Source: a virus (taxonomy: Duplodnaviria > Heunggongvirae > Uroviricota > Caudoviricetes). Taken from it: DNA of 64,000 nucleotides. The notes below the pieces were generated by a model, which was given only the letters and a program-made list of their open reading frames with translations, searched no databases and was not told the origin of the DNA. The DNA lies in the IMG/VR virus record IMGVR_UViG_3300049211_000031, positions 946 to 64,945 of that record. The stretch is one strand, 5' to 3'. Position 1 is the stretch's first letter, and each line of letters begins with the position of its first letter. This document shows, piece by piece, positions 1,933 to 11,361 of the stretch. The translations under genes were made by a program, and so were the position numbers.

Positions 1933-2723
1933 TGAATTACACGATATACATACAGAGTTTAAATAATTTTCCAATAGCTGATTGGGCTGTCTCTGCTTAT
2001 ATGGGGTTTAAAGAGAAACAGGCTAATATAGTATTCTTTGAGGATATTAATGAAGTACCTGTAAGCACCACAAATATAGTAGTAGCTTTTATAGAGGATA
2101 CAAACAAGTATTTCCAAAAACTAGGACTTCCTAAAAAGAAAGCTTTAAATGTTCCAGAAAAGTTGGAAGGATGGGCTAAGAGAAAAATAGCACGAGCTAC
2201 AATGAAGGACTTAAGAGGAGACAAAGTGAGATTTCCCATCTTTGTAAAGCCTGATAGGTATGCTAAGGAGTTTGTAGCAGGAGTAGTGAAAGATAGGAAG
2301 TCTGTAGATTTCTATTTTAAGGATATTCCTGATGACACGCCAATTATGCTCTCACAAGTAATAGAATTCGAATCAGAGTGGAGAGTATATGTAATTAATG
2401 GAGAAATTAAGGGAATTAAGCACTATTTGGGTGATCTCTGGAGTATGCCTGAAAGAGGAGTGGTTCAAGATACTATTAAACACTATCAACAAATAGGAGC
2501 ACCTGCCGCTTATGGAATAGATTTTGGTGTAGCTCTAAGAGAAACTATGGAAATAGGTATGGGTCATCCTAGAAGAAAAGAAACTCAACTTATTGAGATA
2601 AATGATGGATGGAGCTTAGGAAATTATGGGCTGAATGATGTCACTTATTCCACCTTATTAGCTACAAGGTGGAGGGAAATAATGAAAGATGTAAAACATG
2701 GAGCCTATATTCGGAAAAAATAA
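1932..2723 (+). CDS. ATP-grasp domain protein, R2K clade (DUF4343-like)
   Basis: FPIFVKP, SEWRVYV, AYGIDFG, LIEINDGWSLGNYG motifs typical of this ATP-grasp clade. Confidence 0.8.
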   Translation: MNYTIYIQSLNNFPIADWAVSAYMGFKEKQANIVFFEDINEVPVSTTNIVVAFIEDTNKYFQKLGLPKKKALNVPEKLEGWAKRKIARATMKDLRGDKVRFPIFVKPDRYAKEFVAGVVKDRKSVDFYFKDIPDDTPIMLSQVIEFESEWRVYVINGEIKGIKHYLGDLWSMPERGVVQDTIKHYQQIGAPAAYGIDFGVALRETMEIGMGHPRRKETQLIEINDGWSLGNYGLNDVTYSTLLATRWREIMKDVKHGAYIRKK

Positions 2724-2892
2724 GGACGTATACTATCCAGGAGACATAGTCTCAGATGATAGAGGAGTATATAGAATAGATACTTATGATTTTAAACGTC
2801 GGACTTGTATTCTTACTAATATTGTAACAGGACAAATCATCACTCTTACAGAAGAATGTGTAAAAGATATGTTACACCCAGAAAGGAAGTAA
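2698..2892 (+). CDS. hypothetical protein
   Basis: ORF ending at terminator. Confidence 0.65.
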   Translation: MEPIFGKNKDVYYPGDIVSDDRGVYRIDTYDFKRRTCILTNIVTGQIITLTEECVKDMLHPERK

Positions 2893-2909
2893 AAAATACT
2901 TCCTTTTTT
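2883..2909 (+). terminator. intrinsic terminator
   Basis: AAGGAAGTA-aaaaa-TACTTCCTT followed by T run. Confidence 0.8.
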
Positions 2910-2910
2910 C

Positions 2911-2942
2911 TTTGGTATTCTCCATAAATCAGTGTATATTTG
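2911..2942 (+). promoter_or_regulatory. Bacteroidota primary-sigma promoter
   Basis: TTTG 2911-2914, TATATTTG 2935-2942, 20-nt spacer. Confidence 0.85.
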
Positions 2943-2953
2943 TAAAAAACAAG

Positions 2954-3157
2954 ATGAGCAACAAGAATCTATATCAATGGTTATTTCACTTTAACCCCTA
3001 CAAGGAAATTTGGTTTGCCTTTAAAAGAGAAGACTATGTGAAGTTCTTCAATGGTGACACCGAAATTAAGACAGTAGGCTCAAAGAATATTAATACATTA
3101 ATTGAGTTAGTAGAAAAAACAGATGGTGATGTTTCAAAATTATTAAATTTAGAATAA
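2954..3157 (+). CDS. hypothetical protein (MSNKNLYQWLFHFNPY...)
   Basis: ATG 2954 downstream of promoter, within ORF 2912..3157. Confidence 0.75.
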   Translation: MSNKNLYQWLFHFNPYKEIWFAFKREDYVKFFNGDTEIKTVGSKNINTLIELVEKTDGDVSKLLNLE

Positions 3158-3160
3158 ATA

Positions 3161-3544
3161 ATGGCAAAAGTACAGATGTTAGCTAGATGGTCAGAGTTGT
3201 CAGTGAAACAAAATAATATTGACCAAGGAGAACAAGAACTTAAAAGACTCTTAGGAAACGATAATGAACAAAGCCTATATAGGACAGAAATTGTTCATGA
3301 ATATGGTCCAGTAGTGTTTGAAATGGATGATGTCCATCACTATAACAGAGCTAAGGAAAAAGGACATACAACAATTCATTTTAAGAATGGAGACAGTTTA
3401 GTGCTTAAAATTCCATACATTGAATTCTTAGAAATAGATGTTCAATATTCAGGAAAAACTATTAATGACTTCATTCCTATAGACTATATAGACCCTGAGG
3501 ATGAGGAAATTGATGAGGAAACAGATTCAGATTTAGAACTCTAA
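3161..3544 (+). CDS. hypothetical protein, acidic C-terminus
   Basis: ORF track. Confidence 0.8.
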   Translation: MAKVQMLARWSELSVKQNNIDQGEQELKRLLGNDNEQSLYRTEIVHEYGPVVFEMDDVHHYNRAKEKGHTTIHFKNGDSLVLKIPYIEFLEIDVQYSGKTINDFIPIDYIDPEDEEIDEETDSDLEL

Positions 3545-3552
3545 AAGAAAAA

Positions 3553-3584
3553 TTTGGAAAATTGAAAAAGTTTTCCTACCTTTG
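3553..3584 (+). promoter_or_regulatory. promoter of tRNA array 1
   Basis: TTTG 3553-3556, TACCTTTG 3577-3584, 20-nt spacer. Confidence 0.9.
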
Positions 3585-3611
3585 TGTTCAAATAAAGAAT
3601 AAAAAAGATTT

Positions 3612-3701
3612 ATGCAGTCAACAATCATTATAGTCGGTAGAGGAGCGGAGCGCACAATAAAATGCGGCTCAGGCGTTTCTATGTACTATGATGATATTTA
3701 A
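3612..3701 (+). CDS. attenuator leader peptide 1, MQSTIIIVGRGAERTIKCGSGVSMYYDDI
   Basis: 29-aa ORF between promoter and terminator; codons 5-17 are I,I,I,V,G,R,G,A,E,R,T,I,K, matching array 1 tRNAs. Confidence 0.85.
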   Translation: MQSTIIIVGRGAERTIKCGSGVSMYYDDI

Positions 3702-3762
3702 TTTTCCTTTAGTTTGTCATAACATCGAAGCTCCTGAGCCTTAAAAAAGCTTGGGAGTTTTT
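3624..3762 (+). promoter_or_regulatory. transcription attenuator 1 (protector, antiterminator, terminator)
   Basis: 1:2 ATCATTATAGT(3624-34)/ACTATGATGAT(3685-95) plus inner stems; 2:3 GGCTCAGGCGTTTC(3666-79)/GAAGCTCCTGAGCC(3727-40); 3:4 AAGCTCCTGAGC(3728-39)/GCTTGGGAGTTT(3749-60) plus T run. Confidence 0.85.
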
Positions 3763-3771
3763 GTTTTATAC

Positions 3772-3842
3772 ACTCTCGAAGCTTTAAAGTGAAGCTATAG
3801 GCTTTTAACCTATAGAACACGGGGCAGTACCGTGCGGGAGTA
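3772..3842 (+). tRNA. trnK: tRNA-Lys(UUU)
   Basis: cloverleaf; ATAGG-CT-TTT-AA-CCTAT; T-loop GGCAGTA. Confidence 0.9.
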
Positions 3843-3848
3843 CAATAA

Positions 3849-3921
3849 GGACACATAGTTTAATGGAAAAACATCACGCTACGAACGTGAAGAAGTAAAG
3901 GTTCGACCCCTTTTGTGTCCT
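3849..3921 (+). tRNA. trnR: tRNA-Arg(ACG)
   Basis: TCACG-CT-ACG-AA-CGTGA; acceptor GGACACA/TGTGTCC. Confidence 0.92.
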
Positions 3922-3922
3922 C

Positions 3923-3994
3923 AGAGCTATAGTTAAATGGATATAACAGCATCCTTCTAAGTTGCTATTCTGTGTTCGATTCACAGTAGCTCTA
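3923..3994 (+). tRNA. trnR: tRNA-Arg(UCU)
   Basis: GCATC-CT-TCT-AA-GTTGC; acceptor AGAGCTA/TAGCTCT. Confidence 0.9.
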
Positions 3995-4000
3995 CAACTT

Positions 4001-4071
4001 GCGTTACAAGGATTTCGATAGTCTACCTGACTTCCAATCAGGGGGGCGGGGTTTGACTCCCCGGTAGCGCA
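4001..4071 (+). tRNA. trnG: tRNA-Gly(UCC)
   Basis: CCTGA-CT-TCC-AA-TCAGG. Confidence 0.9.
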
Positions 4072-4076
4072 CAATA

Positions 4077-4148
4077 GCCCTTGTCGTCTAGTAGTTAGGA
4101 CGCTGCCCTTTCAAGGCGGAGAAGACGGAGCGTAACCGTTCGAGGGTA
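4077..4148 (+). tRNA. trnE: tRNA-Glu(UUC)
   Basis: CTGCC-CT-TTC-AA-GGCGG; T-loop AGCGTAA. Confidence 0.9.
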
Positions 4149-4153
4149 CATAT

Positions 4154-4226
4154 CGGCTCGTAGTTTAACTGGTTAAAACTTCCGGCTCATAACCGGATGT
4201 TCTCGGTTCAAGCCCGAGTGAGCCAA
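4154..4226 (+). tRNA. tRNA with CAU anticodon (Met, fMet or Ile2 unresolved)
   Basis: TCCGG-CT-CAT-AA-CCGGA; C1:A72 mismatch; only two G-C pairs at 30-31. Confidence 0.85.
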
Positions 4227-4231
4227 CAAAT

Positions 4232-4303
4232 TGCCTTATAGTAGAATGGTCAGCACGCATCCCTGATAAGGATGAAATCTTGGTTCAATTCCAAGTGAGG
4301 CAA
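4232..4303 (+). tRNA. trnI: tRNA-Ile(GAU)
   Basis: CATCC-CT-GAT-AA-GGATG. Confidence 0.92.
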
Positions 4304-4307
4304 CTAT

Positions 4308-4380
4308 AGGAAGTTCGTATAGTGGTTTAATACATCATCCTTACAAGATGAATTCCTGAGTTCGATTCTCAGACTTCCTA
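4308..4380 (+). tRNA. trnV: tRNA-Val(UAC)
   Basis: TCATC-CT-TAC-AA-GATGA; acceptor AGGAAGT/ACTTCCT. Confidence 0.92.
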
Positions 4381-4385
4381 CTTCT

Positions 4386-4459
4386 GGGGGTACATGTACC
4401 AAGGCTGGCGAGTTTGCCTTGCAAGCAGACTGTGGTCGTTTCGATTACGACTATCTCCA
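4386..4459 (+). tRNA. trnA: tRNA-Ala(UGC)
   Basis: TTTGC-CT-TGC-AA-GCAGA; G3:U70 alanine identity pair present. Confidence 0.9.
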
Positions 4460-4465
4460 CCTGAA

Positions 4466-4497
4466 TTTGGTAGATTCAAATATTTACCATATCTTTG
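4466..4497 (+). promoter_or_regulatory. promoter of tRNA array 2
   Basis: TTTG 4466-4469, TATCTTTG 4490-4497, 20-nt spacer. Confidence 0.9.
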
Positions 4498-4501
4498 TAT
4501 T

Positions 4502-4585
4502 ATGAAATTCGTGAAACAATATCTACTCTCCTATTTATCTAGCCTCAGTTATCCTGTGGCAGGGGAGTATATTGTCGGGTTTTAA
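4502..4585 (+). CDS. attenuator leader peptide 2, MKFVKQYLLSYLSSLSYPVAGEYIVGF (probably leaderless mRNA)
   Basis: 27-aa ORF; codons 7-17 YLLSYLSSLSY are exclusively Leu/Ser/Tyr, matching array 2. Confidence 0.88.
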   Translation: MKFVKQYLLSYLSSLSYPVAGEYIVGF

Positions 4586-4639
4586 CTATCTTAGGAATTT
4601 ACCGGGCTCCCCTGCTACTAAATACAGCAGGGGATTTTT
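4517..4639 (+). promoter_or_regulatory. transcription attenuator 2
   Basis: 1:2 CAATAT..ACTCTCCT(4517-32)/AGGGGAGTATATTG(4561-74); 2:3 GTGGCAGGGGAGT(4556-68)/GCTCCCCTGCTAC(4606-18); 3:4 TCCCCTGCT(4608-16)/AGCAGGGGA(4626-34) plus TTTTT. Confidence 0.88.
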
Positions 4640-4647
4640 ATTTATAT

Positions 4648-4721
4648 ACCTCCGTGGGCAAATAGAAAAGTCGCTAGTCTTAGAAACTAGAGTTTTGCGA
4701 GTGCAAGTCTCGCCGGGGGTA
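4648..4721 (+). tRNA. trnL: tRNA-Leu(UAG), short variable loop
   Basis: CTAGT-CT-TAG-AA-ACTAG; acceptor ACCTCCG/CGGGGGT, A73. Confidence 0.88.
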
Positions 4722-4724
4722 CAC

Positions 4725-4798
4725 AGCGGTGTAGGCTAATTGGTAACGCCGTCAGACTTAAAATCTGAAGTTTGTGAGTTCAAATCTCACCATCGCTA
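4725..4798 (+). tRNA. trnL: tRNA-Leu(UAA), short variable loop
   Basis: TCAGA-CT-TAA-AA-TCTGA. Confidence 0.9.
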
Positions 4799-4803
4799 CA
4801 TAA

Positions 4804-4886
4804 GGAGAGTAAATCAGCATGAAGCTGGGGCGTCCTGCTAAGACGTTCGTACTATTGAGTATGTGGATCAGGGCCACTGCTCTCCG
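4804..4886 (+). tRNA. trnS: tRNA-Ser(GCU)
   Basis: CGTC-CT-GCT-AA-GACG; long variable arm; G73. Confidence 0.85.
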
Positions 4887-4891
4887 CATTT

Positions 4892-4976
4892 GGAGGATTG
4901 CCAGAGCTGGTAATGGCGCTGTCTTGAAAACAGAGGGCGGGTAATACCGACAGGAGTTCGATTCTTCTATCCTCCG
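4892..4976 (+). tRNA. trnS: tRNA-Ser(UGA)
   Basis: CTGT-CT-TGA-AA-ACAG; long variable arm; G73. Confidence 0.92.
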
Positions 4977-4983
4977 CTTTATT

Positions 4984-5066
4984 GGGAGTTTATACCGTAG
5001 GGGTAGCGGGCCTGACTGTAAATCAGGTGGCTTTGGTCTCGGGTGGTTCGACGCCATCAGCTCCCA
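4984..5066 (+). tRNA. trnY: tRNA-Tyr(GUA)
   Basis: CTGA-CT-GTA-AA-TCAG; extended variable arm. Confidence 0.92.
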
Positions 5067-5079
5067 CTTTAAAATAAAA

Positions 5080-5111
5080 TTTGGAAAATTCAAAAATTTG
5101 TTTTACCTTTG
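5080..5111 (+). promoter_or_regulatory. promoter of tRNA array 3
   Basis: TTTG 5080-5083, TACCTTTG 5104-5111, 20-nt spacer; AAATTTGGAAAATT shared with promoter 1. Confidence 0.9.
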
Positions 5112-5115
5112 CACT

Positions 5116-5193
5116 ATGATTAACAACTGGCATAATACATTTACCTTCACTCCCAATCAACCTGATCGGGCTAGGGTGTATTGTGCTAACTAA
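5116..5193 (+). CDS. attenuator leader peptide 3, MINNWHNTFTFTPNQPDRARVYCAN (probably leaderless mRNA)
   Basis: 25-aa ORF; codons 3-17 use only N,W,H,T,F,P,Q,D, the eight specificities of array 3. Confidence 0.9.
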   Translation: MINNWHNTFTFTPNQPDRARVYCAN

Positions 5194-5246
5194 GGATTTT
5201 CTTACGTTTTTCCATACACCCTCAGTCAAAAAGCTGAGGGTTTTTT
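5131..5246 (+). promoter_or_regulatory. transcription attenuator 3
   Basis: 1:2 CATAATACAT(5131-40)/GTGTATTGTG(5176-85) plus inner CCT/AGG and CCC/GGG; 2:3 AGGGTGTAT(5173-81)/ATACACCCT(5214-22); 3:4 CCCTCAGT(5219-26)/GCTGAGGG(5233-40) plus TTTTTT. Confidence 0.88.
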
Positions 5247-5254
5247 ATTTTAAT

Positions 5255-5329
5255 CGAGTAGTGTCGGGAATGGTAATTCCGTCTTCCCTTGGAAGGAAGG
5301 GCATGCTAGTTCGAGCCTAGTCTACTCGA
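5255..5329 (+). tRNA. trnP: tRNA-Pro(UGG)
   Basis: CTTCC-CT-TGG-AA-GGAAG; C1-G72, A73. Confidence 0.9.
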
Positions 5330-5336
5330 CTTTAAC

Positions 5337-5407
5337 GGTGTATTGGTGAAATGGTATCATACTTGTCTGTCTAACAAGTGTCCTCGGATCGTAACCGTGA
5401 TACACCG
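5337..5407 (+). tRNA. trnD: tRNA-Asp(GUC)
   Basis: CTTGT-CT-GTC-TA-ACAAG; G73; unusual U37. Confidence 0.88.
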
Positions 5408-5412
5408 CAATT

Positions 5413-5483
5413 GGGAAATTAGCTCAAAAGTAGAGCGAGAAGCTGTTAACTTCAGGACGGTGGAGCGTTACCATCATTTCCCG
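5413..5483 (+). tRNA. trnN: tRNA-Asn(GUU)
   Basis: GAAG-CT-GTT-AA-CTTC; G73. Confidence 0.9.
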
Positions 5484-5493
5484 CTTAACACAC

Positions 5494-5594
5494 TAATGGG
5501 TGGTGGAATTTGGCAGACGCACCTCCTCGTCTCGGTGGCGCAGATAAAGGAAATAAATAACCTCTGCATGTACGTTCAAATCGTACCCCATTAG
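5494..5594 (+). ncRNA. atypical tRNA-like RNA (GUC at the anticodon position, C33/U37, ~31-nt variable arm)
   Basis: acceptor TAATGGG/CCCATTA+G73; Leu-type D arm; CCTCC-TC-GTC-TC-GGTGG; T arm GTACG-TTCAAAT-CGTAC. Confidence 0.7.
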
Positions 5595-5600
5595 CTTAAC

Positions 5601-5674
5601 GCCTGCTGTAGCTCAACTGGTAGAGCAATCCCCTTGTAAGGGAAAGGTTGTCGATTCGATTTCGACCTCAGGCT
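5601..5674 (+). tRNA. trnT: tRNA-Thr(UGU), irregular acceptor stem
   Basis: TCCC-CT-TGT-AA-GGGA; 8-nt 5' strand GCCTGCTG against 7-nt CTCAGGC. Confidence 0.8.
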
Positions 5675-5726
5675 CACATAAAGAAGTTAAGGATGCGCAC
5701 GTAGAAATATGCCTTAATTTCTGGAA

Positions 5727-5797
5727 GGGGAGATAACTCAATGGTAGAGTAGAGGCCTGAAGAGCCTTAAATGCAAGTTCGACTCTTGCTCTCCCCA
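5727..5797 (+). tRNA. trnF: tRNA-Phe(GAA)
   Basis: AGGC-CT-GAA-GA-GCCT; acceptor GGGGAGA/TCTCCCC. Confidence 0.92.
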
Positions 5798-5804
5798 CTT
5801 ATAA

Positions 5805-5875
5805 TGCCTTGTAGTAGAAAAGTAACACGTCGGGTTTTGACCCCGAAGAAGATTGGGCGGTACAATCCAAGGCAT
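5805..5875 (+). tRNA. trnQ: tRNA-Gln(UUG)
   Basis: TCGGG-TT-TTG-AC-CCCGA; U1-A72. Confidence 0.88.
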
Positions 5876-5877
5876 CT

Positions 5878-5948
5878 GTGACTGAAGCTTTTGAGTAAAG
5901 TGCCTCTCTGTGAAAGAGGAGAATGGAGTGCGAGTCTCCACTGTCACC
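5878..5948 (+). tRNA. trnH: tRNA-His(GUG), no encoded G-1
   Basis: CCTCT-CT-GTG-AA-AGAGG; C73; base at -1 is T. Confidence 0.88.
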
Positions 5949-5952
5949 TTAT

Positions 5953-6025
5953 ACGGGATTCGTATAGTGGTTATTATCTCGGTCTCCAAAACCGTAGGAC
6001 AGATGTTCGAATCGTCTATCCCGTG
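5953..6025 (+). tRNA. trnW: tRNA-Trp(CCA)
   Basis: TCGGT-CT-CCA-AA-ACCG; G73. Confidence 0.9.
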
Positions 6026-6027
6026 CT

Positions 6028-6053
6028 AAAGCTCCTTAAAAGGGAGCTTTTTT
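6028..6053 (+). terminator. intrinsic terminator closing the tRNA region
   Basis: AAAGCTCCT-taaaa-GGGAGCTTT plus T run. Confidence 0.85.
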
Positions 6054-6082
6054 CATTTATTTTAAAAATAGTTTGTAAAATT

Positions 6083-6114
6083 CTTGACTTTGCCAAAAAT
6101 TTTCTGTAGCTTTG
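6083..6114 (+). promoter_or_regulatory. Bacteroidota-type promoter with no substantial ORF downstream
   Basis: CTTG 6083-6086, TAGCTTTG 6107-6114, 20-nt spacer. Confidence 0.6.
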
Positions 6115-6234
6115 TCAGCGCGGAGTCGCACTAACAAACCAACAGAGTGTCTGTTGAGCGCGAGAGTCGCAGAGAGTTTAGAATATGGGTAGAGAAGAGG
6201 TGTTAAGATAAGATTTAAGAAAATTACCAAATTA

Positions 6235-6266
6235 TTTGGAAAATTACAATAATAGTTCTATCTTTG
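6235..6266 (+). promoter_or_regulatory. promoter of the pre-terminase operon
   Basis: TTTG 6235-6238, TATCTTTG 6259-6266, 20-nt spacer. Confidence 0.85.
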
Positions 6267-6281
6267 TTAAGAATTTGAAAA

Positions 6282-6623
6282 ATGCAACTAGTAAAGATAC
6301 GAAAGAAAACCAGTAGTAAAGTAGAACAAGCTAAGACAATGATTAGCATTTTCTGTTTACTAACAAATATCAAACTGTCAGATACAGAGTTGACAGTACT
6401 TGCATATTTCATGGTGTATAAAATAAATAGAAAAACAAAAGATCTTATTCTAAGTGCAGGTATTCTAAAATCAGACGACAGTTTAAAGAACACTCTGTCT
6501 AAATTAAAGAAATTTGGAATGCTTGTTAGGAATATAGACAGTAAGGAGTATTCTCTAAGAAAGGAATTAGACTTTACACTCACTCCTGCAATGGGCGTTC
6601 TTATAAAAATTGATAATGCTTAA
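6282..6623 (+). CDS. putative winged-helix DNA-binding protein
   Basis: basic, helix-helix-beta hairpin pattern; family inferred by eye. Confidence 0.6.
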   Translation: MQLVKIRKKTSSKVEQAKTMISIFCLLTNIKLSDTELTVLAYFMVYKINRKTKDLILSAGILKSDDSLKNTLSKLKKFGMLVRNIDSKEYSLRKELDFTLTPAMGVLIKIDNA

Positions 6624-7138
6624 TGAAGGATATTAAGATAGTTTCAAGATTGGTAGCAAGAGAGTTTAACTATGATCCAGAGCTAACAGAGGATGTGAAT
6701 GACTTCTTCTGGAAAGAAACAAGAAAGATGCTATCTTCTATGGAATACACTTCAGTTTCAATCAAATGTCTTTGTACTCTCACTGTCTCTAAGAGAAAAG
6801 TAGATTACATAATAAAAAAGTTGATAGGAAAGATAAGGAATATTCGTAAGTCTACAAGATATAAAGAAAGTACAACAGCCCTCTTATTAGAAGTGAACTA
6901 TGACAAGCTAAGAAAAGCTTTAAAACAAAGAAATATATTAGCTAAACAATACTATGAAAATTACACTAAAAGGATTAGCAGAGTACGTGAAGCTTCTTCC
7001 AGCAATAATAGCGAACTCGGACAAGATATTAGAGGCAACATGGAATCAGGTGAAGAACGAGTTGGGGATGCTGAAAGAAGAGGAACAACAGGAAATAGTG
7101 AGGAGACGATTAATATGTGCAACATGCCCTTTCAATAG
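6623..7138 (+). CDS. putative HU/IHF-like DNA-binding protein with C-terminal tail overlapping the next gene
   Basis: N-terminal helical, basic region; crAss-like gene order. Confidence 0.55.
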   Translation: MKDIKIVSRLVAREFNYDPELTEDVNDFFWKETRKMLSSMEYTSVSIKCLCTLTVSKRKVDYIIKKLIGKIRNIRKSTRYKESTTALLLEVNYDKLRKALKQRNILAKQYYENYTKRISRVREASSSNNSELGQDIRGNMESGEERVGDAERRGTTGNSEETINMCNMPFQ

Positions 7139-7412
7139 CTCAAACGCTGTAAAGGATGGATATAAAACAAATAGGATTGATGAGCATTGTATAATGTGTG
7201 GATGTACAATAACAAGAAAAACAAACTCTCTTTCTTCAGATTGTGGAATATCTTGTTGTAATCCCGATTCAGAATGTAATTGTGCTAAAGAAAACGTTAA
7301 AAAATTTAATACAGAGAATAATATAGTAATTGAACCCAAATGGTTCAAATTTAAAAATCAAGAAGATGAGCAACAAACAAAGAATTCAGACGAAGCAACA
7401 GATATTCCATAA
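6954..7412 (+). CDS. Cys-rich putative Zn-binding protein
   Basis: RRRLICATCPF, CIMCGC, DCGISCC motifs. Confidence 0.75.
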   Translation: MKITLKGLAEYVKLLPAIIANSDKILEATWNQVKNELGMLKEEEQQEIVRRRLICATCPFNSSNAVKDGYKTNRIDEHCIMCGCTITRKTNSLSSDCGISCCNPDSECNCAKENVKKFNTENNIVIEPKWFKFKNQEDEQQTKNSDEATDIP

Positions 7413-7590
7413 CTTTGTGGAGATAGTAGAGTTGTTCCCTCAATACACCATAGCTCAACATATGGTACATGTATTACGCCCTCAAACAGGATGTTACCAG
7501 TGGACTGATGAAGAGCTTCTAAGAAAGTTTGAGAAATATAGGGATGAGCTTGAAACTGAATTAGTAGATAATATTAAAGAAGACGAGTAA
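7366..7590 (+). CDS. hypothetical protein (MSNKQRIQ...)
   Basis: ATG 7366 within ORF 7330..7590. Confidence 0.7.
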   Translation: MSNKQRIQTKQQIFHNFVEIVELFPQYTIAQHMVHVLRPQTGCYQWTDEELLRKFEKYRDELETELVDNIKEDE

Positions 7591-7763
7591 TGTTTCTAGC
7601 ATTCTTAGAATACTTTCCAAGTTACTTTAAATTCTATAGATGGATGAGAGGAGGTAATTGGAAATACGTTGTGTGTAAATTCCCAGCACCAATAAATGGA
7701 TGTTGGGTACACAACTCAGAAGCACTCTGGTGGGAACTTATTGAGAAAGAAGAGCAATATTAA
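7590..7763 (+). CDS. small aromatic-rich protein, 57 aa, absent from ORF track
   Basis: TAATG coupling; MFLAFLEYFPSYFKFYRWMRGGNW... Confidence 0.65.
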   Translation: MFLAFLEYFPSYFKFYRWMRGGNWKYVVCKFPAPINGCWVHNSEALWWELIEKEEQY

Positions 7764-7766
7764 AAA

Positions 7767-7925
7767 ATGCTAACTAGTTTTAAATGGTTTAGAAAATTAT
7801 CTAAAGGTTCTTGGTATTTGTACAGAAGTACAGGGCAGCTTCCAGGACTTTTTGGATGCTGGTGGTCAAGAACTAAACATCCAGAGCATAGATATTATTA
7901 TCTCTTAAGAGAAGAACATTACTAA
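7767..7925 (+). CDS. small aromatic-rich protein, 52 aa, likely paralog of 7590-7763
   Basis: MLTSFKWFRKLSKGSWYLY...GCWW. Confidence 0.65.
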   Translation: MLTSFKWFRKLSKGSWYLYRSTGQLPGLFGCWWSRTKHPEHRYYYLLREEHY

Positions 7926-7929
7926 AAAT

Positions 7930-8003
7930 TGCGGGGTGGACTGGAGAGGTGCCAGCTCGGTCTCATAAGCCGGATAACGAGAGTTCGATTCTCTCTCCCG
8001 CAA
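7930..8003 (+). tRNA. trnM: tRNA-Met(CAU), initiator-like
   Basis: acceptor TGCGGGG/TCCCGCA+A73; CT-CAT-AA loop; resembles bacterial fMet tRNAs. Confidence 0.8.
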
Positions 8004-8005
8004 CT

Positions 8006-8203
8006 ATGAAAATAGAAGTAGCCTATAACCCTCTATTTGATTATAACGGTCCATTCATTGAGAATGGGTATACATCAACTTTTATAGATTTCAGTGAGTA
8101 TGCACAAACTAACAATACAAGTTCCTGTCTACCAGTTCAAGTGTGTGGTGATAATCGACAAGGATGTAGAGAGGAAAGCGAACTCCTTCATAAGGAGAAA
8201 TAA
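8006..8203 (+). CDS. possible hypothetical protein overlapping the next gene by 104 nt
   Basis: ATG directly after tRNA; large overlap makes it doubtful. Confidence 0.35.
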   Translation: MKIEVAYNPLFDYNGPFIENGYTSTFIDFSEYAQTNNTSSCLPVQVCGDNRQGCREESELLHKEK

Positions 8204-8513
8204 GTGGAATGAAGACCTTCTTATTAAGGATGGTGACCAAGTCCACGGGTATGCAATAAATCCCGGACTTGTACACACCTACTACATCTTCTACTCAGAA
8301 GAAAGTGTAACACCCAATATTATAACACATGAAGTGTCGCATTTAGTAGACTATGTAATGGGTGACAAAGGTATGGTGGACACAGAAACAAGAGCCTACC
8401 TATCTGGATTTATAAATGAAAAGATATTTGATTACGTATTAAAGAATAAACTACTTATTAATAAATGGCTGGTAAAAGAAAACCTCAACTTGACAGAAAA
8501 CCTTCAAAAGTAG
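8100..8513 (+). CDS. putative zincin-like metalloprotein (HExxH)
   Basis: ITHEVSHL...ETRAYL motif. Confidence 0.7.
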   Translation: MHKLTIQVPVYQFKCVVIIDKDVERKANSFIRRNKWNEDLLIKDGDQVHGYAINPGLVHTYYIFYSEESVTPNIITHEVSHLVDYVMGDKGMVDTETRAYLSGFINEKIFDYVLKNKLLINKWLVKENLNLTENLQK

Positions 8514-8647
8514 AATCTGACACTTGGAAGCTTTCTCCAAGACAAATATTAATTCAAAAGCTAAATATGCTTTTATATGCAGCTCAGATTAATAGAATTA
8601 GTGATGTAGAAGCTAATGAATTATTAAGAATACTTTCGCATATGTAA
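8465..8647 (+). CDS. hypothetical protein
   Basis: ORF ending just before tRNA-Cys. Confidence 0.5.
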   Translation: MAGKRKPQLDRKPSKVESDTWKLSPRQILIQKLNMLLYAAQINRISDVEANELLRILSHM

Positions 8648-8650
8648 TCT

Positions 8651-8720
8651 GCACAGTTTAGTCTTGGAGGCTATTGCGTCTGCAAAACGTTTGGAATCAG
8701 TTCGAATCTGATACTGTGCT
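8651..8720 (+). tRNA. trnC: tRNA-Cys(GCA)
   Basis: GCGT-CT-GCA-AA-ACGT; acceptor GCACAGT/ACTGTGC; U73; short D loop. Confidence 0.88.
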
Positions 8721-8733
8721 CACAAAAACCAAT

Positions 8734-9015
8734 ATGACTAAAGAACGCATATTTATTGTTGGTGATGAAACAAGGATTCTTCAAGAAGAGGTGAGTCTTA
8801 GGCCTTATAATCTCACTGATGCAGATATTATTCATGCAGCTACAGTAATGTCTATTGCTAGATTTATATGGGATTACGAAGCTCGCCTTCAGGATCCTTC
8901 CTTCTATGCAGATATCCCTACATTTGAAATCCCAGAATATCCTAAAAAAGAACCATCGTTCTTTGATAGATTAAAAAGAAAACTAACATGGCTAAGAAAG
9001 TTAATTCATATATAA
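8734..9015 (+). CDS. hypothetical protein (MTKERIF...)
   Basis: ATG 8734 downstream of tRNA-Cys, within ORF 8674..9015. Confidence 0.7.
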   Translation: MTKERIFIVGDETRILQEEVSLRPYNLTDADIIHAATVMSIARFIWDYEARLQDPSFYADIPTFEIPEYPKKEPSFFDRLKRKLTWLRKLIHI

Positions 9016-9311
9016 GTGTTGAACTTGACTGGGCTGAGAATCAGCTCCAGTCTTGGAGGGACTATGTAGATGCTAATCCACTTCATCTATTAGAGGATAG
9101 ATGGGGTAAGAAAGAGATGCCTAAAGGTGGACATACATGGGTAGTAACAGCAACAAAAGAACAGCAAATTAAAGCTGTACAAGAAACAATGGTGAAATAT
9201 CTTCAGCTTCTTGAAGTGGTAGATAAACTTAGAGAGAAAGAAGAAGCTAAGGCTGAAGCTAAAGGGGATGCTGGTATTCCCAATAGAATGAAAAATAAAG
9301 ATGGAAATTAG
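8988..9311 (+). CDS. putative terminase small subunit
   Basis: helical protein overlapping the start of TerL; positional inference. Confidence 0.55.
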   Translation: MAKKVNSYISVELDWAENQLQSWRDYVDANPLHLLEDRWGKKEMPKGGHTWVVTATKEQQIKAVQETMVKYLQLLEVVDKLREKEEAKAEAKGDAGIPNRMKNKDGN

Positions 9312-11361
9312 AACCACAGAGTTTTTTAGAAATTTTAAAAATCTTCCACCTCCAGGTACAAAAGAGTTTGATGATCTAGTTGATTGGGAACTCGATAAGT
9401 GTTTTGGAGGTATTAACATTGGTGGTGTTCACATTCCAGGAATTCTCTATTCCTATCTAAATCACTGGAATATCATTGTCGATACAAAGGATAAATATGG
9501 AAACATTATTCGTACACCCAAGCATCCAGATTTACGTGATAATGAATGGGAACGTGCAGAATACTATGAAAAAGCACGACTTGCCCAAAAGGGATATATT
9601 GAAGTTGGTCTTCGACAAGGTGGAAAGTCAGAGTGGGAAGCGGGGCATATTGGGCTTTCAGCGACGCTCTTCGAGAATAGTCAAAATGTTCTGGTATCTG
9701 GAAATGGTGCTGACTTACGTATTATCACCGAGAAGATTGATTTTGGATGGAAGCATATGTGGGAAGGACTCAAAATCCCAAAACTAGATAAGGATTGGCG
9801 CAGACCTACTCTAAGACTAGGATTTAAAGATAAGAAGAATGAAGACCATGTGTGGAGCTGGATAATGATTCGTAATGCTGAAGAAGGCTTGAATACAGAA
9901 GCTGCAGCGGGTACAACAGCTAAAGCAGCAGTATTTGATGAGATTGGTAAATATCCATTCTCTCCAGTATTTGAGGCTCTTAAACCAGCCCTCTTATCGG
10001 AATTTGGATGGCGTTGTGTACCAATGCTTGTAGGAACAGGCGGTGCCTTCGAAAAAGGTGAGAACGCTGAACGTGTATTCTATCATCCTAGAGCTAACAA
10101 CTTCCAAGAAATAATTGATCCAGAAACAGGTAAAGAAACAGGACTTTTTATGTCAGGTCTTTATAGACAAGACTGTAAATTCTGGTCAAATCTCTATGAG
10201 TATCTTCTATGTAAAGGATATGATAATATAGGAGATGAACTCAAAGACATCGCTATTAAGGTGTCTGACAAAGAGAAAGCTAGGCAAAAGATTGAAGAAG
10301 AGCGTCTTGCCAAGTCTAAAGACCCAGATAAAACGGAGTACTTAAAACTTATAATGTACTACCCTCTTAATCCTAAGGAGTGTTTCTTATCAGGATCAAC
10401 AAACCCGTTCCCTATACAAGCCGCTCAAGATCATTTAGAATTCTTAAGACATAATAATATTACAGGACGTTACGTAAGATTTCATAGAGATTTAAATGGA
10501 AAAGTATACCACAAATTTGCAGAAGACCATGACAGACCAATTAGTGAGTTCCCTACAAAGGGCAACCTGGGTAAAGATTGTCCCGTTGTTATATGGGAAG
10601 AACCAATATCCAATTCTCCAAGAGGTCTATACATCGCGGGGGCTGACCCTTATAATCAGTCCGTGTCTGCGTGGTCAGACTCTTTGGGAACCGTCTGCAT
10701 CTGGAAAAGACAAATAGATGTGGCAGGTGAAACTTATCAAGATCAGGTAGTAGCATCTCTAGCTTCAAGACCTCTTACAATGAATGAGTGGCACGAACAA
10801 GTGGAAATGTTATTAGAATATTACAATGCTGTGTGCTTCCCTGAAAATGAAGCTGGTACATTTATTCAACACTTTGAGCGTAAGAACAAAGGACATCTTC
10901 TAGCAGAAGGATTTAATATTGCTAAAGAGATTAATCCTAATACAAAAGCTACTGGTGGTGGACGTATTTATGGACTAGCAGCTACAGTGAAGAATATTGA
11001 CTTCTGTATGTCTTTAATGTTGGACTACTGTAAAGAGCTAATCCAAGTAGGTACTAATCCAGAAACAGGCGAACCTATTATGAGGCTCGGAATTACACGT
11101 ATTAAAGACCCAATGCTCTTAGAAGAGATTATTAAATATGATAATGAAGGTAACTTTGACCGCGTTGTAGCATTTAGACATGCTTTAGCATACGCTAGAC
11201 ACTTAGATAAGTACTATCCTATAGTAAATATTAAGGAACAACCAAAGGCTACAGAGTTTAAAAGGAACCCTTTTACATCTTCTCCATTCTCACCAGTTAT
11301 GGGAGGATTTACAAAATCAAATAGTCCTTTCCCCAAAATGCCTAAGAATGTTATACGATAA
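9301..11361 (+). CDS. terL: terminase large subunit
   Basis: Walker A-like RQGGKS, Walker B VFDE, nuclease YIAGADPY and NFDRV. Confidence 0.92.
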   Translation: MEIRTTEFFRNFKNLPPPGTKEFDDLVDWELDKCFGGINIGGVHIPGILYSYLNHWNIIVDTKDKYGNIIRTPKHPDLRDNEWERAEYYEKARLAQKGYIEVGLRQGGKSEWEAGHIGLSATLFENSQNVLVSGNGADLRIITEKIDFGWKHMWEGLKIPKLDKDWRRPTLRLGFKDKKNEDHVWSWIMIRNAEEGLNTEAAAGTTAKAAVFDEIGKYPFSPVFEALKPALLSEFGWRCVPMLVGTGGAFEKGENAERVFYHPRANNFQEIIDPETGKETGLFMSGLYRQDCKFWSNLYEYLLCKGYDNIGDELKDIAIKVSDKEKARQKIEEERLAKSKDPDKTEYLKLIMYYPLNPKECFLSGSTNPFPIQAAQDHLEFLRHNNITGRYVRFHRDLNGKVYHKFAEDHDRPISEFPTKGNLGKDCPVVIWEEPISNSPRGLYIAGADPYNQSVSAWSDSLGTVCIWKRQIDVAGETYQDQVVASLASRPLTMNEWHEQVEMLLEYYNAVCFPENEAGTFIQHFERKNKGHLLAEGFNIAKEINPNTKATGGGRIYGLAATVKNIDFCMSLMLDYCKELIQVGTNPETGEPIMRLGITRIKDPMLLEEIIKYDNEGNFDRVVAFRHALAYARHLDKYYPIVNIKEQPKATEFKRNPFTSSPFSPVMGGFTKSNSPFPKMPKNVIR

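Follow-up and report, generated by a model that had tools for sequence, protein, structure and literature searches.

The leader-peptide attenuators trpL, hisL, leuL, thrL, and ilvGMEDA share a translated leader, regulatory codons, a common order of helices, and a read-out of ribosome position. It is established for the trp, his, and leu attenuators that ribosome pausing depends on charged tRNA, and in the ilv and thr leaders, several amino acids are sensed by a single leader. The pheST (pheM leader) attenuator of Escherichia coli controls phenylalanyl-tRNA synthetase through the decoding of cognate codons. The tRNA genes themselves are generally thought to be controlled at their promoters (i.e., by growth rate and the stringent response) and by processing, and phage tRNAs are usually discussed as constitutive codon usage helpers or as decoys against tRNA-cleaving defenses. 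We know of no leader-peptide attenuator in the tRNA clusters of T4, T5, and similar large phages, and a full-text literature search returned no account of leader-peptide attenuation of tRNA genes in phages or in cells. For a possible precedent at the E. coli tRNA-Phe genes, no literature support was found, and it is not claimed here.

Here, we describe a tRNA array in the window, by which we mean the whole 64,000-nt stretch of DNA that was analyzed, itself part of a 128,945-bp virus record. Based on its sequence and on models of RNA folding, we consider it likely that, in the second of the three units of this array (unit 2), a crAss-like phage of Bacteroidota controls a five-gene tRNA operon by trp-type, ribosome-mediated (leader-peptide) attenuation of transcription. 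The principle itself is classical; the new element would be that tRNAs themselves are the regulated genes.

How does this locus compare with the systems described above? Every sequence-level element of a leader-peptide attenuator was found in unit 2, with promoter, ORF, protector, antiterminator, and terminator in the canonical order, and as in the ilv and thr leaders, several amino acids would be sensed at once. The classical attenuators regulate biosynthetic enzymes, whereas unit 2 would regulate tRNAs, and in place of the classical long run of a single codon, the phage leader lists each codon box with one to three codons, naming five boxes in unit 2 and up to 13 in relatives. Unit 2 also differs from the classical cases in being phage encoded, in its Bacteroidota-type promoter context, and in its probably leaderless mRNA. 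With pheST, unit 2 would share leader-peptide control of the translation apparatus and a homeostatic loop on the supply of charged tRNA; there, however, the target is a synthetase, one amino acid is sensed, and the genome is cellular, whereas here the targets would be tRNAs, the amino acids number three, and the genome is that of a virus. T-box riboswitches likewise report tRNA status through competing terminator and antiterminator helices, but a T-box binds uncharged tRNA directly (via its specifier codon and the T-box sequence) and does so without translation, whereas the specificity of unit 2 would reside in the codons of an ORF. A cmscan search of positions 2500 to 10000 against Rfam (E ≤ 0.1) returned tRNA and two weak, unrelated matches and no leader, T-box, or riboswitch family; because none of the latter models matched, we regard unit 2 as analogous, not homologous, to the Rfam leader families and the T-box. 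Like the clusters of T4 and T5, the array is phage borne and would be transcribed as multi-tRNA precursors. Finally, in mycobacteria, leaderless polycysteine short-ORF attenuators are reported to control the expression of a downstream operon (bioRxiv 10.1101/834739). The two systems have in common a leaderless short ORF rich in codons for the sensed amino acid; the mycobacterial targets are cysteine-related protein genes, whereas here the target would be a phage tRNA array and several codon boxes would be read.

Genome context and layout of the tRNA array

The window has a G+C content of 35%, and its long genes all lie on the plus strand, as do all of the array features described below. A crAss-like context was found in the form of matches to the capsid family Crass_capsid (PF23898, 1.4e-33) and the muzzle protein family crAss_MUZ (PF25731, 2.7e-51), and the terminase and portal proteins match PHROG families. 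Judged by these genes, the phage that carries the window is crAss-like, with crass-type major capsid and muzzle proteins.

The tRNA array comprises about 22 genes between positions 3570 and 6050, a set that was completed with relaxed ARAGORN calls limited to array gaps and in which a few calls are possibly wrong. It is split into three units, and all three have the same order: a promoter, a short ATG ORF, a large hairpin, a strong hairpin with a U-tract, and tRNAs beginning 10 to 15 nt farther on. Sister unit 1 (3577 to 4461) has a promoter, a leader ORF at 3612 to 3701 (P0001), and a terminator at 3727 to 3761, followed by tRNAs for Lys, Arg, Arg, Gly, Glu, Met, Ile, Val, and Ala, in that order. 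Sister unit 3 (5104 to 6050) has a promoter, a leader ORF at 5116 to 5193 (P0003), a terminator at 5218 to 5241, and a final terminator at 6028 to 6050, and its tRNAs are, in order, Pro, Asp, Asn, Thr, Phe, Gln, His, and Trp.

Several observations on the surroundings of these units are set down here in their own right. Between tRNA-Asn and tRNA-Thr of unit 3 lies a tRNA-like element with a very long extra arm (5494 to 5594), which ARAGORN calls as Ala(ggc) at the relaxed threshold only and to which no amino acid of the unit 3 leader is obviously assigned. The element is kept in the related locus L001 (6290 to 6392) with an identical 28-nt core, and in an exact search with this 28-nt pattern, only the contig of L001 matched. 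About 0.9 kb upstream of the first promoter of the array (3577), positions 1932 to 2723 encode an ATP-grasp protein of the R2K clade (PF18299, 3.8e-33). No leader or attenuator was found at the isolated tRNA-Met (7930 to 8004) and tRNA-Cys (8651 to 8721) genes, which lie between protein genes; in several relatives, Cys is part of an attenuated unit whose leader has a Cys codon.

Promoter, leader, and tRNA genes of unit 2

Unit 2 has a predicted Bacteroidota-type promoter at 4466 to 4497, which begins directly after the tRNA-Ala gene of unit 1 (4388 to 4461). Its -33 TTTG (4466 to 4469) and -7 box TATCTTTG (4490 to 4497) follow the Bacteroidota sigma-A pattern of -33 TTTG and -7 TAnnTTTG with a spacing of about 19 to 21 nt. 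The same ATTTGG...TAnnTTTG arrangement also precedes units 1 and 3 of the window, the units of relatives, and many other genes of relatives. The leader ORF (P0002, 4502 to 4585) comprises 27 codons plus a stop codon, and only 4 nt separate the -7 box from its ATG. Because of this short distance, the unit 2 mRNA is probably leaderless or nearly so, and a leaderless start is plausible when judged from the promoter spacing. The ORF is the sole ATG ORF of at least 15 codons that ends 0 to 90 nt before the unit 2 terminator, and its stop codon lies 22 nt upstream of the latter.

Codons 7 to 17 of this ORF (4520 to 4552) form the putative sensor, a run of 11 codons for Tyr, Leu, and Ser only: TAT CTA CTC TCC TAT TTA TCT AGC CTC AGT TAT (YLLSYLSSLSY). 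With three CUN, one UUA, two UCN, two AGY, and three UAU codons, the run covers all five codon boxes (CUN, UUR, UCN, AGY, and UAY) of the five downstream tRNAs. No other run of at least nine Leu/Ser/Tyr codons exists in any of the six frames of the 64-kb window, and given that these residues make up 0.188 of all residues in 12 long ORFs, the per-site chance of 11 consecutive ones is about 1e-8. The selectivity is confined to the run: 15 of the 26 codons after the ATG encode residues other than Leu, Ser, and Tyr, namely, the N-terminal five and a structured tail.

The tRNAs behind the terminator are Leu (anticodon tag, reading CUN; 4648 to 4722), Leu (taa, reading UUR; 4725 to 4799), Ser (gct, reading AGY; 4803 to 4885), Ser (tga, reading UCN; 4892 to 4977), and Tyr (gta; 4984 to 5067). 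The Ser(gct) gene is a weak call, made by ARAGORN at the relaxed threshold only and with no Rfam match at 4803 to 4885; its syntenic homologues in three relatives (L001, L085, and L165) were called by ARAGORN at default settings. No terminator was found after tRNA-Tyr, and the unit 3 promoter begins at once; therefore, transcription continuing beyond unit 2 would run into the unit 3 attenuator. The two tRNA-Leu genes each measure 75 nt and have a 5-nt variable loop, a class-I-like shape. In L001, the tRNA-Leu homologues are 81 to 86 nt long and have a long arm; L085 and L128 also have short Leu tRNAs.

Much of what the original prediction had said about the leader is borne out by these data. 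The eleven Tyr/Leu/Ser codons are present exactly as it listed them, they sample all five of the anticodon families that it named (CUN, UUA, UCN, AGY, and UAY), and the ATG does lie close behind the -7 box. It had further proposed that the array groups the three amino acids whose bacterial tRNAs are class II; the grouping by amino acid identity (Leu, Ser, and Tyr) stands, but the claim fails for shape since the two Leu tRNAs, at 75 nt and with a 5-nt variable loop, are not of class II form.

Alternative helices and modeled ribosome position

Three helices are predicted for the unit 2 transcript. The first is a protector (1:2) hairpin at 4503 to 4584, in which a 5' arm with the sensor codons (4503 to 4548) faces a 3' arm that includes segment 2 (4554 to 4584); within it, 4524 to 4532 pairs with 4561 to 4569, i.e., regulatory codons pair with the 5' strand of the antiterminator. 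The second is an antiterminator (2:3) spanning 4556 to 4618, in which 4556 to 4568 pairs with 4606 to 4618 over 13 bp, including two G.U pairs, and which is extended by pairing of 4575 to 4578 with 4602 to 4605. The third is an intrinsic terminator (3:4) at 4608 to 4643, with a stem of 4608 to 4616 paired with 4626 to 4634, a loop at 4617 to 4625, a U-tract at 4635 to 4643, and a folding energy of -15.4 kcal/mol. Its hairpin ends at 4634, 13 nt before the first tRNA (start, 4648), which leaves no room for a promoter in between. The antiterminator overlaps the 5' arm of the terminator, and the two helices are mutually exclusive.

Which of these helices is favored depends on the stretch of RNA that is free to fold. 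The free transcript (4502 to 4647) folds as protector plus terminator (z = -3.9), and the protector is also part of the minimum free energy (MFE) structure of 4502 to 4625. In the RNA left by a ribosome paused on the sensor (4550 to 4643), the MFE structure is the antiterminator (-31.5 kcal/mol) and the terminator is absent; the antiterminator is likewise the MFE structure of 4550 to 4625 (-29.4 kcal/mol). When segment 2 is covered (4575 to 4643), the terminator forms.

We also scanned a ribosome across the leader by placing a 28-nt footprint at every codon, with fixed footprints and equilibrium thermodynamics. With the full-length RNA of unit 2, the modeled terminator probability drops to about 0 for A-site positions on codons 7 to 14 and stays at about 1 for all others. 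In a second scan, the RNA was ended before the 3' arm of the terminator to imitate cotranscriptional folding. In this truncated model, the 5' arm of the unit 2 terminator stays sequestered as long as the A site lies within the sensor and is freed 1 to 2 codons past the sensor end; the antiterminator is favored again with the ribosome at the stop codon, and timing would therefore matter.

Leader content and tRNA sets in related phages

An alignment of the terminase (A1) led to about 160 related phage loci, and among the parts fetched, tRNA arrays were present in 14 nonredundant loci. In total, 24 units were compared, namely, the 3 of the window and 21 in relatives. A terminator qualified if it lay at most 35 nt before a tRNA run, the ORF was picked without regard to composition (ATG, at least 15 codons, and ending 0 to 90 nt before the terminator), and leader and tRNAs were matched over 23 classes, with Leu, Ser, and Arg split by codon box. 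A 12-codon window statistic against random sets was replaced by precision and recall, as it saturates at large tRNA sets and is conservative.

Each of the 36 terminators immediately ahead of a tRNA run is itself preceded, at a distance of 0 to 90 nt, by the end of an ATG ORF of at least 15 codons, and in 26 nonidentical units, the gap between ORF and terminator is 11 to 44 nt, mostly 18 to 32 nt. Recall is 1.00 for all three window units, and in most of the 24 units, every downstream tRNA class is named in the leader. The unit 2 leader scores an F1 of 0.63 against its own tRNA set versus 0.49 and 0.22 against the other two sets of the window; across genomes, the leader's own set is the best match in 17 of 17 within-genome comparisons (mean F1, 0.75 versus 0.25). 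Where the tRNAs of a relative are grouped in another way, its leader differs accordingly: in L100, the leader LSLHSSRPYQQLSLL is followed by Pro, Gln, His, Arg, Leu, Leu, Ser, Ser, and Tyr; in L071, LQHYQPACLYLY stands ahead of Ala, Gln, His, Leu, Pro, Tyr, and Cys; and in L068, QFQHTRFWFTPT stands ahead of Pro, Thr, Phe, Gln, His, Arg, and Trp. The leader run YYSLSLSS is also present in L068. The match extends to absences, in that L099 has a leader devoid of Ile and Val where the tRNAs for these two amino acids are missing.

The closest relatives allow a view of recent change in unit 2. The terminase of L165 is 95% identical to that of the window, and the array regions are about 81 to 88% identical within their aligned blocks; the leader peptide is nonetheless the same, as all four substitutions in the ORF are synonymous. 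Relative to the window, L085 carries A4566G in segment 2, U4608C in segment 3, and A4634G in segment 4, a triple change that preserves antiterminator and terminator pairs alike. This covariation is read from the close trio of the window, L165, and L085 only. A MAFFT alignment of five Leu/Ser/Tyr attenuators for column-wise covariation counts was abandoned, the sequences being too divergent.

These results bear on the central claim of the original prediction, an attenuator whose sensor codons match the tRNAs behind it, and they speak for it on four counts, all independent of how the region was first chosen: an ORF picked blind to composition attains full recall and its best F1 with its own tRNA set, three alternative helices switch with the modeled position of the ribosome, relatives retain the design despite sequence divergence, and substitutions in the ORF of a near relative are synonymous while segments 2, 3, and 4 covary at one position. 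The 13-bp antiterminator that it had placed in competition with the terminator was also recovered, overlapping the terminator stem in folding states that switch.

Other features of the related loci

At L077 (6329 and downstream), a terminator follows the leader FLRPSLSLYSQHLY, but the tRNA calls behind it comprise just Pro, Val, and Gly; some tRNA genes were missed, or else the array is decayed. In five loci, a tRNA-Glu gene has its own promoter and a near-leaderless ORF with four to five Glu codons that runs into the tRNA with no terminator (L100, 2570 to 2708; L099, 5521 to 5661; L022, 649 to 785; L032, 3879 to 4016; and L083, 50 to 185). The last GAG GAG C of this ORF is able to pair with the 5' strand of the tRNA acceptor stem, and the arrangement may be a translation-controlled switch of tRNA folding or processing. 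Homing-endonuclease-like ORFs are inserted in or between tRNA units of relatives (L165, 2093 to 2527; L128, 6781 to 7119; and L022, 2915 to 3220), where they split a unit from its attenuator or part neighboring units.

One locus touches on the host. L164, a 103-kb Logan contig (SRR4235163), encodes a terminase that is 51% identical to that of the window and is named by its source as a Chitinophaga protein; it lies beside a portal gene and a Crass_capsid gene, adjoining SusC/SusD-type genes. The arrangement points to a crAss-like element that is integrated or a remnant, and to a host range of the group within Bacteroidota. The INPHARED phage collection contained no near relatives of the window and gave tRNA-sized matches only; a match to LR745206 (L004) was likewise rejected as a relative, its similarity being confined to the tRNA.

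A model for unit 2 and its alternatives

From the sequence elements, alternative helices, codon-to-tRNA match, conservation, and covariation observed here, we infer the transcription start, the translation of the leader, and the switching of unit 2 in vivo as follows. The transcript would start at the ATG (4502) or slightly upstream of it, and its 27-codon leader would be translated by a ribosome. If Leu (CUN and UUR), Ser (UCN and AGY), and Tyr codons are decoded fast, the ribosome would reach segment 2 (4556 to 4568), the terminator (4608 to 4634) and its U-tract would form, and the polymerase would halt 13 nt before the first tRNA. If there is no translation, the protector would hold segment 2 together with the sensor codons, and the terminator would form as well. 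If, on the other hand, any charged sensor tRNA is scarce, the ribosome would pause on 4520 to 4552, the protector would be broken, segment 2 could then base-pair with the terminator 5' arm, and the polymerase would read through into the Leu, Leu, Ser, Ser, and Tyr tRNAs. We posit that the phage tRNAs made by read-through would in turn relieve the pause, closing a negative feedback loop.

What would the leader sense? Candidate signals are the codon demand of the phage, host shut-off, tRNA-cleaving defenses, and starvation. We speculate, tentatively, that the phage carries a set of tRNA gauges in which each leader acts as an OR gate for the codon boxes of its own block, such that the loss of any single host tRNA would induce exactly the replacement block, which would be switched off upon recovery. 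The loss could be caused by host anticodon nucleases (i.e., antiphage defense), by phage-induced shut-off, or by phage codon demand, and the set would thus be a self-tuning system of counterdefense and supply; we consider this extended model possible but less likely than not.

Could the same attenuator answer to another signal, namely, amino acid starvation or generally weak aminoacylation of host tRNAs, with read-through as a by-product of starvation? The structural model would fit equally well, and because pausing depends on charged tRNA, the leader cannot separate a shortage of tRNA from a shortage of amino acid or of charging. What is hard to explain by starvation is the exactness with which leaders match their tRNAs by codon box, since an extra tRNA is no help when the amino acid is missing. 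Units with only Arg(acg) have CGN in the sensor, those with only Arg(tct) have AGR (5/5), and those with both have one of each; similarly, units with Leu(tag) but not the UUR-reading Leu tRNA have CUN (5/5). We consider starvation an unlikely signal on these grounds.

A second alternative concerns the step that is controlled. Translation of the leader might act on the processing or stability of the tRNA precursor (through access of RNase P or RNase E or through Rho), with the hairpin and U-tract being a constitutive partial stop. Some units do lie inside longer precursors without a promoter of their own, and the Glu-rich ORF that runs into tRNA-Glu in relatives implies that translation beside tRNAs is usable without a terminator. 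The folding models argue otherwise. Every one of the 24 units has an upstream partner for the 5' arm of its terminator, the availability of that partner depends on the position of the ribosome, and the modeled switch averages 0.48, far beyond the 0.03 obtained when the intervening sequence is shuffled. In the truncated model, antiterminator formation across the 24 units has a mean of 0.74 with the A site in the sensor and of 0.38 after it, and the position of the last matching codon tracks that of antiterminator loss (median difference, 0 codons; Spearman 0.61, p = 0.0015), with p-values that are only descriptive because the units are related by descent. In the full-length equilibrium model, several relatives retain the terminator at any ribosome position, and for these, the kinetic, cotranscriptional argument of the truncated model is therefore needed. 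The position in unit 2 that covaries across segments 2, 3, and 4 also argues against control through processing, which we regard as improbable.

That the leader is merely an ordinary small ORF or noncoding spacer before a terminator, with a Leu/Ser/Tyr run due to chance or low complexity, is very improbable: related DNA totaling 2.4 Mb does contain other runs of at least 10 Leu/Ser/Tyr codons (most of them poly-Ser or poly-Leu in antisense frames, with one mixed run, in L118, that has no nearby tRNAs), but the only such run of the window sits exactly between promoter and terminator and before exactly matching tRNAs, the same design recurs in the two sister units and in 21 units of relatives, upstream ORFs accompany 36 of 36 terminators, and leader content tracks the tRNA set.

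Implications for phage tRNA supply

The attenuator that we favor for unit 2 would, if true, mean that the phage gauges the speed of decoding separately for each codon box and produces tRNAs as they are needed. It would directly link tRNA supply, host defenses that target tRNAs, and phage gene expression, and it would constitute a compact sensor, provided by nature, of how available individual tRNAs are. In this way, attenuation, a textbook mechanism for amino acid operons, would gain a new class of targets, found in Bacteroidota viruses.
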